From NCBI RefSeq assembly GCF_988243305.1, contig NZ_OZ547136.1: a stretch of 64,000 nucleotides of DNA. One strand, written 5' to 3'. The position numbers are program-made. Shown piece by piece: positions 36,401 through 39,400 of this stretch; the stretch's first letter is position 1, and each line of letters begins with the position of its first letter.

Positions 36401-39400
36401 CAAGCGCACCATGATCGTCTTTGTATCGCTGATTGACTTTCGGTAATGGAACATCTTCTGACATAAATTTTAGTACGGTAACAGTTAACTAAATTTTCAT
36501 GTGGTAGCACTGAATCAGGAGACTGCGTTTCCTGATGTGCGCTGTTAATTTTCTGTTTTTACGAAACATTTTCCCCTTCTTCCTGTGTATTTTATTGCGC
36601 TCCTCCTTTCATGTCCTTCCCATATCCTGAAACTCACTTAAATACTGTTGAATCGTCAAACATTGCAACTTTCAATGACTGAAATCAAAAATTGCTATTT
36701 TTTAAGCTAACCAACTGTATTAAAAGCATTCAGTGGAATAATTTTCTGCACTTTTCCAGTAATTATGGTTATAAATTTTGTAATGTGCTGTTTTTGCGAT
36801 ATATGGCAGAATAAAGAACTGTTCATTTGTGTTATATCGATCGATAAATCTGTCATGTTGCTGTAGTTCAGATCATTATTCTATAATGATCAAAATTAAG
36901 TCAATTCTGGCTGGTTTGTTACTCAGCATTCTGGTACCGGTTGATGCGGGTAAATACCGGAAGGGCGGTAGCGTGCCATCGCAAAACATGGTGGGAGGTA
37001 TCGTCAGGAGGCTGGTGATTGTTGGTATGACATGAATAAAAGGTTTTTCGTTTGACTGGAAAATTATGTTGCAGGAACGAGAGGACTGAGGAACAAAGCT
37101 TATTCCGGCGCTGTCCGTCCTTGCTGTCACTGACACTGATGTCTGCTTTATTATCGCCTTTATCTCTTCAGGCAGCGGATGTCCGGCGTAGCGGAGATGA
37201 AGCATTTATCATTCAGCAGCAGCGTCAGGAAGCCCTTGAGCAACAACTGACGCCTTCAGCCCCTGATGTTCGCCTTTCTGCACCTGGCTCTTTTGCCCAT
37301 AAGATTAATTTTCCTGTTGAAACGCCCTGTTTTCAGATTAAACAGACGGAACTGAAGGGGGCTGATGCGTTACCACACTGGCTGCCTTTACAAAAAATCG
37401 CCAACGGGGCGGTCGGGCATTGCCTGGGGGCGAAAGGAATTAATCTGCTGATGAGTACATTGCAGAACCGTCTGGTCGATCATGGTTATGTCACCACCCG
37501 TGTTCTGGCACCTTCGCAGGATTTAAAAAGCGGTATCCTCCGGCTGGTCATTATTCCCGGTGTTGTGCGACATGTGCGTCTGACACCGGACAGTGATGAC
37601 TATATTCAGTTGTATTCCTCATTCCCGGCACACGAAGGTTCTCTGCTGGATTTACGGGACATTGAGCAGGGGCTGGATTTAGGTAACAGCCGGATACAGG
37701 GACAACATACTGAGCTGAATGCAACCAGTGGAAATCTGTCTACACAGAATGCGCAACTGAGTGCCGGTACGCTTTCCGCCCGGACTGCCGGGCAGTTCAG
37801 CAGTAATGGCGGTACGATAAATGCCGACACACTGCAGATATCGGCACAAAGCCTGTCAAATCGTAAAGGCAGTCTGATTCAGACGGGAACAGGGGATTTT
37901 TCGCTGAGTCTGCCGGGAAGCGTGGATAACCGGGAAGGGCTGCTTGCGGCAAATGGCGCGGTGCGTCTGGATGCACTGAGCCTTGATAATCGCAAGGGGA
38001 AAGTGCAGGCGGAGCAGTCACCCTCCCTTCAGAAATCCCCGCCCACGTTTCTGAAACCGTTTGTGGCTGGTGTCTGTGCGGCATTGCTGGCGGTCAGCGT
38101 GGCTATTCCGGGATGGCAGTTTCTGACACAGCCATCACCGGAGGAGCAGCATTTTACCTGGGGGAATGGTTGTAAAAAGCAGTGAAAACAGTAAATACAG
38201 AGTATCGTGATGAATTAGTGCTCAGGGGCTACCAGTATTCAATAACCAGCGTATCGGCATCGCATTCCTGTAATTCTGGTATTGACTGTTATGACTAAAT
38301 TCAATGTATATATGGCAGGCAGAAATATGTTAACAGTCCCGGAGTTGTGGAAAATCCTCCGGAGCTAATATCGGGAGTGCCTTAACAATTTTCCGTAAGT
38401 TAAATGATAATTTCTGAGTGAGAATATGGTCACGATTTGTGTTGACGGTGAAAATAAGACTCATAAAATTACCGACTGGACGCTGTGGGCTGGAAATGAC
38501 GACAGAGAGGTTATGCTGACCTGTCATTTTCGCAGCGGGAGAAAATATACTCGTCCGCTTTCTGTATGTCAGATAACGCCAACTGTAAATTTGCGAAATG
38601 TTTTCCTCGAAAGGAAAGGGAACGCTGTAACATCCCGGGCTGAACTGGTTATTATATATGGTGATAAATATGCTGCTGTTTATTACCGCGAGGGTGAACG
38701 ACCCTACATCATGAAAACGACCGGCCTTGACTTTCAACAGTGTTCAGCATTTACAGAGCATGCCGTGTTTAATTACTTGTGTAGGGTGGCTAATGAACGT
38801 ATTTTTTATGCCCGTGGTAATAACAGAAATATCGATGAGAATATCCTTAGGCAGATAAAGAAAATAGTTCCTCATCCGGATACCGCCTTGCATGCATACT
38901 GTTCAGGACAGAGTAAAAAACGTGATTCGCCATGGGGTTTGATTTTTCCGTTTGGTCTTAATGAAAGTCAGTTGCTGGCTGTCAAACGGGCATTTTCCTC
39001 ACAGATTTCAGTTATTGAAGGACCACCTGGAACAGGTAAAACACAGACTATACTCAATATTGTTGCTAATATATTAATTCAGAATAAAACAGTGGCAATT
39101 TTGTCCAATAATAACTCAGCTGTCAGTAATGTTTATGAAAAGATGGACAAACAGCAACTGGGATATGTGATGGCACGACTGGGGAGTACGGAGAACAGGC
39201 AACAGTTTTTTTCAACGTCGATTTCGCGTTCTGAGGAAGTCTTACCTGACTCACCGTCTGCAAATGCGATTGATGATGTACTTCAACAAGTGAAAAAACA
39301 CCTGAATGCCATTAACCAGGTCGCTTCGTTAAAAGCAGAAATTAATGAGCTGAATATTGAGTATAAATACCTGCAGCAATGGCAGAGTCAGAATCTTCGA

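Follow-up and report, generated by a model that had tools for sequence, protein, structure and literature searches.

A cdiB::cdiA::vasL-like fusion frame in Escherichia coli, probably left behind by a decayed class IV contact-dependent inhibition locus

The locus and its reading frame

The window, i.e., the whole 64-kb stretch of DNA that was analysed, comes from E. coli, and the 2.2 kb around the reading frame described here are 100% identical to several complete genomes. According to the RefSeq annotation, this region belongs to an island rich in IS elements, whose end lies at a tRNA-Ser gene beside ghrA/ycdX. ORF calling identified a maximal ORF of 377 aa, counted from the first TTG, at 37052-38185 on the plus strand (referred to below as the chimera). 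The original prediction had described this ORF as a remnant that begins like a TpsB transporter of two-partner secretion (TPS), continues as hemagglutinin-like repeat sequence, and stops after 377 aa; the ORF is present as described, while its length rests on a mechanical TTG start. The features of the locus are as follows:

35222-37051, no strand assigned: upstream module, arranged collinearly with its counterpart at intact class IV cdi loci; three genes for hypothetical proteins (one of them of the 'ECs1377 family'), a DUF4222 gene, an ORF of 49 aa, and the leader of cdiB
37139-38185, plus strand: RefSeq CDS, 348 aa, WP_001335711.1, 'POTRA domain-containing protein'
37052-37677, plus strand: piece 1, 5' part of a class IV cdiB; encodes a hydrophobic N-terminus, the whole of POTRA1 (37331-37561), and POTRA2 in truncated form (37565-37678), without the ShlB barrel
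37666-37677, no strand assigned: junction 1, 12-bp microhomology GCAGGGGCTGGA, identical in cdiB and cdiA in a three-way base alignment
37678-38020, plus strand: piece 2, internal cdiA fragment in its native frame, CdiA residues ~419-537 (~115-118 codons), FHA-1 repeat region, with a TIGR01731 match at 37886-37993
38019-38020, no strand assigned: junction 2, overlap of ~2 bp, CdiA residue ~537 joined to vasL codon ~220
38021-38151, plus strand: piece 3, part of a T6SS vasL-like gene (codons 220-264) read in its native frame, with a hydrophobic segment at 38051-38119
38152-38185, plus strand: junction 3 and tail; similarity to vasL stops at 38151 and is followed by 10-11 unrelated codons and a stop

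TTG 37052 is the mechanical first start and is probably not the real one; translation likely starts at either TTG 37121 or ATG 37139, which give products of 354 and 348 aa, respectively. For cdiB-STEC4, a class IV cdiB gene, a UUG start has been proposed 18 nt upstream of the annotated ATG (PMC8510554); TTG 37121, located 18 nt 5' of the annotated ATG 37139, corresponds to this UUG. The N-terminus of the chimera is hydrophobic and ends in ...SLQA/AD, and TTG starts are present further 5'.

The stretch upstream of the chimera (34670-37035) represents a conserved module that accompanies cdiB in both serX and pheV islands. It comprises genes for a 169-aa hypothetical protein, an 'ECs1377 family' protein (labelled 'DNA-binding protein' in one genome), and a 77-aa hypothetical protein, as well as a minus-strand DUF4222 gene and the 49-aa ORF (36886-37035), which has a hydrophobic N-terminus and lies directly 5' of cdiB. 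Further upstream, a truncated IS600-type IS3 transposase gene and an IS1 with a programmed frameshift (32020-33516, minus strand) adjoin a CPBP-peptidase gene fragment and mark a further island rearrangement boundary ~3.5 kb 5' of the chimera.

Correspondence with an intact class IV cdi locus

E. coli strain H22 carries the same upstream module as the window, followed by a complete cdiB-cdiC-cdiA-cdiI locus, the genes of which are uninterrupted and encode full domain sets, as checked by ORF and Pfam analysis; an intact 5' segment of cdiB-cdiC-cdiA is kept (at least 80%) in 190 complete genomes. The relevant H22 genes (positions in the H22 sequence L005) are:

cdiB, 1905-3644: 579 aa from TTG or 550 aa from ATG, with POTRA_2, POTRA_3, and the ShlB barrel
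cdiC: 175 aa, HlyC family (PF02794, E = 1.8e-34)
cdiA, 4197-13214: 3,005 aa, with a VENN motif
cdiI-like gene: 116 aa, DUF596
vasL-like gene, 18346-19707, ~5 kb further on: 453 aa, with ImpA_N and VasL

In blastn, the window maps on the H22 locus as three collinear segments and nowhere else:

window 35222-37677 = H22 70-2530, 97.4% identity
window 37666-38020 = H22 5504-5858, 97.5% identity
window 38019-38151 = H22 19004-19136, 97.0% identity

The DNA comparison with H22 resolves the ORF into CdiB(1-209 of the ORF; 1-180 from the annotated ATG)::CdiA(~419-537)::VasL-like(220-264)::unrelated tail. This base-level mapping confirmed that the ORF is a fusion, as had been predicted, but one of three parts and not two, with a tail from a T6SS vasL-like gene. 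At junction 1, 2,985 bp are deleted relative to H22 (the 3' part of cdiB, the whole of cdiC, and the 5' part of cdiA including the TPS domain) and the native cdiA frame is preserved; the H22 counterpart of piece 2 falls within the uninterrupted 3005-aa cdiA ORF. Junction 2 corresponds to 13,147 bp deleted relative to H22, comprising the remainder of cdiA, cdiI/DUF596, an orphan VENN fragment, genes for a GIY-YIG nuclease and a NERD helicase, and the 5' part of vasL. Junction 3 marks the beginning of a helicase-bearing cassette, in which the helicase gene begins 240 bp 3' of the chimera stop codon; this breakpoint is common to SW071611, whose upstream deletion differs. An assembly or sequencing artefact, joining unrelated reads, is refuted by the recurrence of the same junctions in 485 independently assembled complete genomes (99.6-100% identity) and can be given next to no weight.

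Domain searches recovered both POTRA and hemagglutinin-repeat matches (Pfam and NCBIfam TIGR01731). In Pfam, POTRA1 (PF08479, POTRA_2) was matched over the full model at aa 94-170 (E = 1.3e-22), while POTRA2 (PF17287, POTRA_3) was matched at aa 172-209 (E = 5.4e-09) over model positions 2-40 of 56 only; the chimera lacks the complete POTRA2 required of a TpsB, as the match stops at junction 1, whereas that of intact H22 CdiB covers positions 2-56. The top matches among solved structures are CdiB transporters (6wim_A, E = 1.8e-15, aa 48-228). Alignment with the CdiB/FhaC TpsB structures 6WIM and 6WIL covers the N-terminal linker and the POTRA region and stops where the barrel is expected to start; unlike these proteins, the chimera has no 16-stranded barrel. 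The ShlB beta-barrel (PF03865), which covers aa 201-514 of intact H22 CdiB (E = 7e-110), was not found in the chimera by Pfam at E<=1, and the barrel-coding DNA of H22 cdiB was not found in the 64-kb window by blastn or tblastn. The TpsB-like N-terminus of the original prediction was thus borne out by POTRA_2, the truncated POTRA_3, and the CdiB structure matches.

In the second part of the chimera, Fil_haemagg remained below threshold in Pfam (E = 0.2), and the filamentous-hemagglutinin 20-aa repeat TIGR01731 was significant in NCBIfam, with two stretches at aa 279-314 (E = 4.5e-11; 42.4 bits, for a cut-off of 18 bits). Hemagglutinin repeats had been predicted to run through the rest of the ORF; they do make up the cdiA piece but not the last ~55 residues, which consist of the vasL-like fragment and unrelated codons. 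Pfam did not find the TPS domain (PF05860) in the chimera, the retained cdiA piece beginning downstream of it, nor did it find the ImpA_N and VasL domains there; only the hydrophobic segment between these two domains is kept, and the Kyte-Doolittle maximum of the chimera (2.1, aa 334-352) lies within this vasL-derived piece. A signal of this kind, with these domain scores and 97% DNA identity to the intact genes cdiB and cdiA, is far stronger than chance would produce.

Class IV CDI loci are recognized by the lysyl-acyltransferase gene cdiC, which lies between cdiB and cdiA (PMC8510554). The likeness of the chimera to the class IV system cdiBCAI-STEC4 of STEC_O31 (Halvorsen et al. 2021, PMC8510554) runs through the H22 locus, which has the hallmark cdiC and to whose cdiB and cdiA genes pieces 1 and 2 are 97% identical at the DNA level. 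Gene order and Ntox25-bearing relatives indicate that the parent was specifically a class IV (cdiC-containing) CDI locus; the window derives from such a locus but is not itself one, since cdiC is missing. Compared with a class IV system, what is left in the chimera amounts to 209 ORF codons for cdiB (180 when counted from the ATG) and ~118 for cdiA; the barrel, cdiC, the TPS domain, the receptor-binding domain, the VENN/CT toxin, and cdiI are missing.

One alternative is that the ORF consists of just two parts, cdiB and cdiA, and still precedes a series of orphan cdiA-CT/cdiI modules. The intact H22 locus does have orphan modules downstream of cdiI (a VENN pre-toxin fragment and a small ORF). 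However, a motif scan found no VENN motif or variant in any of the six frames of the 64-kb window, blastn and tblastn searches with every H22 cdi gene gave no match in the window to cdiC, cdiI, the orphan region, or other cdiA sequence beyond the three pieces, RefSeq annotates no toxin/immunity genes within 20 kb on either side of the chimera, and the tail of the ORF is vasL-derived. The VENN scan and the blastn and tblastn searches refute this alternative for the window, and we regard it as very improbable; the orphan CdiA-CT/immunity modules that the original prediction had envisaged downstream are absent.

Probable deletion-derived decay and the alternative of a new gene

TpsB proteins use their C-terminal barrel to transport their partners, and the TPS domain, the receptor-binding domain, and the toxin are all indispensable to CdiA. 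As the barrel and the secretion, receptor, and toxin parts of CdiA are gone, the chimera cannot act as a TpsB or as a CdiA. Judging from the sequence comparison, the chimera is most probably (probability of about 0.88) a non-functional fusion pseudogene, left as a scar of a class IV cdi locus by ordinary deletion-derived decay; the earlier suggestion of a scar of a decayed TPS or CDI locus is supported by the domain searches and by the mapping onto the intact cdiB-cdiC-cdiA-cdiI locus. The predicted product would still have a signal-like N-terminus followed by POTRA1 and roughly two-thirds of POTRA2, together with a beta-helix repeat stretch of ~115 aa and a single hydrophobic helix.

We infer both the non-functionality of the chimera and the direction of events, i.e., deletion from an H22-like state. 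In the proposed scenario, an ancestral class IV cdiB-cdiC-cdiA-cdiI locus would have lain beside a T6SS vasL-like gene in an SpLE1-type island at tRNA-Ser (serX). A deletion of ~3 kb at the 12-bp microhomology would have joined codon 209 of the cdiB ORF in frame to cdiA residue ~419, and a second deletion of ~13 kb may have fused vasL from codon ~220 on, again in frame, to cdiA residue ~537. At a third breakpoint, the remainder of vasL would have been exchanged for the helicase cassette, which introduces a stop after ~11 codons. Some observations run counter to a scar. The ORF is open in all copies sampled and all three junctions keep native frames; two in-frame junctions are expected by chance in ~1 of 9 cases, and longer ORFs are also likelier to be noticed. 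In addition, the cdiB upstream region is retained, so that transcription of the chimera is possible.

At least 80% of the 2.2-kb chimera region is held by 485 of the 5,426 complete E. coli genomes (~9%). The chimera is near-invariant: comparison with five further copies (O157, O111, O145, 97-3250, and Esc19) revealed that, among 1,134 nt, only two sites varied, one of them synonymously and the other nonsynonymously, and the frame was open in every sampled copy. Near-invariance points to a single recent origin and not to long-term maintenance. Against H22, 15 nonsynonymous and seven synonymous differences were counted, counts that mix divergence before and after the fusion and are too few to decide but are compatible with relaxed constraint.

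The distribution also bears on the alternative that the chimera is an expressed new gene, encoding a Sec-exported periplasmic protein with a POTRA and beta-helix part and an inner-membrane anchor from the vasL helix, with retention of the gene owed to modulation of other TPS or CDI systems (e.g., by titrating TPS domains) or to the cdiB promoter and leader now driving the helicase cassette. Such a role may be suggested by an ORF that is intact in all sampled copies and occurs in 485 genomes, by the in-frame presence of two hydrophobic stretches, one at the N-terminus and a strong one at the C-terminus, by a complete POTRA1, and by 97% conservation of the cdiB upstream region. However, diversity is so scant that the open frame tells nothing about selection, POTRA2 is truncated, an IS element divides the ORF from its upstream region in O157 strains, and the region is deleted in lineage II O157 strains. 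No PADLOC defence-system model matched the chimera (0 families at E<=0.001). A simple scan upstream of the chimera likewise found no plus-strand sigma-70 consensus; match counts were at the level of shuffled sequence and argue neither for nor against transcription. Overall, we consider a new gene of this kind improbable, and slightly more so the version in which the triple fusion is an expressed protein kept in ~9% of complete E. coli genomes, where it would interfere with or sense TPS/CDI, or in which the cdiB control region would regulate the adjacent helicase-type defence cassette.

The chimera appears to have been catalogued before. From synteny, we infer that it is the 'HecB-like protein' ECs1382/Z1640 of the SpLE1 island (S-loop 72 / OI-43,48) of O157:H7 strains Sakai and EDL933; the gene order shared with SpLE1 includes ECs1377-1379, two IS629 transposase ORFs, the chimera, a split helicase gene, ibrAB-like genes, and the PerC homologue pchD. 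Published tables give ECs1382/Z1640 as hemolysin-activator-like and virulence-related (PMC2323221, PMC1890555), and the literature searched yielded no account in which it is recognized as the remnant of a three-gene fusion. Although listed in O157:H7 comparative genomics as 'HecB-like' and virulence-related, it cannot be a working transporter. Lineage II strains of O157:H7 are without ECs1377-ECs1391 (PMC1890555), and O157:H7 carries an IS629/IS1203-type element of the IS3 family ~35 bp 5' of the chimera (TR01, L006 6519-7827; insertion site at window positions ~37013-37018); the chimera is therefore dispensable. Some O157 genomes (OK1, UTME-4) carry two IS copies in the stretch 5' of the chimera.

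Other fusions were found at the same locus. FDAARGOS_1302 (L004) carries an independent cdiB'::vasL' fusion with its breakpoint at window position 37488, while SW071611 carries a cdiB'::vasL fusion (window position 37180) that has junction 3 and is without junctions 1 and 2. Further cdiB fusions in the database join cdiB' to the cdiA N-terminus (P0091), to VENN-Ntox25 (P0094), and to the VasL C-terminus (P0009). These independent fusions of cdiB to other sequences indicate that decay at this locus is recurrent. An intermediate with junctions 1 and 2 and without junction 3 was present in 0 of the 5,426 complete genomes queried with a hybrid sequence. A 554-aa cdiB'::cdiA'::vasL fusion with this arrangement and a complete VasL C-terminus (P0003) was found in a single 2195-bp Logan contig (ERR11010899, L012); it could be a rare intermediate or a mis-assembly. 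The occurrence of junctions in differing combinations suggests recombination between island variants.

CDI loci are plastic, and degenerate loci and orphan cdiA-CT/cdiI arrays occur in Enterobacteriaceae. Like these, the chimera is a product of deletion or recombination inside a cdi locus, and the truncation of cdiB, which has occurred here repeatedly and independently, fits the known plasticity. It differs in that it keeps no toxin/immunity module and in that the fusion runs into an unrelated T6SS gene.

Probable effects on annotation, and the adjoining cassette

The intact cdiB, cdiA, and vasL ORFs of H22 and GPEC349-628 are each split by RefSeq into several partial features, although the frames contain no stops; the intact ORFs of GPEC349-628 (L013) include cdiB at 1414-3153 and cdiA from 3706 onward, and one internal cdiA piece in this genome is named 'POTRA domain-containing protein'. 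In H22, the boundaries of the RefSeq fragments coincide with those of the chimera pieces:

RefSeq partial feature 5505-5870: chimera piece 5504-5858
RefSeq partial feature 18994-19134: chimera piece 19004-19136
RefSeq split of cdiB at ~2565-2582: junction 1 at 2530

This fragmentation was probably caused by the protein record of the chimera (WP_001335711/WP_001345400) being aligned as annotation evidence, and CDI-positive strains may be scored as CDI-defective from the RefSeq fragments. The label 'ShlB/FhaC/HecB fragment' on the vasL piece in MLI114 was considered and rejected as circular: it is inherited from the chimera protein, while the native gene encodes ImpA_N and VasL.

Downstream of the chimera, the window contains a gene (38426-41107, plus strand) encoding an 893-aa SF1-type helicase (AAA_11, AAA_12) with a C-terminal DUF2726. 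This protein matches only the helicase cores of the Mokosh MkoA and MkoC models (E = 1e-43 and 2e-40, respectively); in O157 TR01, the helicase is split into two ORFs. In other strains, the same slot holds either the 3' part of vasL with a KAP NTPase and QatC/QatD, or a GIY-YIG nuclease and a NERD helicase; the slot between the vasL remnant and the ibrAB-like genes looks like a variable site for defence cassettes. The junctions described here provide datable markers for the assembly of the island and of this variable cassette (vasL remnant to ibrAB-like genes), and for exchange between serX and pheV. To the right of the cassette, a block (41563-43811, plus strand) comprising a PAPS-reductase-like gene (IbrA-like, with weak BrxP/DndC matches), an overlapping IbrB-like/ParB-like gene, and a gene for a PerC-family regulator (pchD in Sakai) is conserved in all variants seen.
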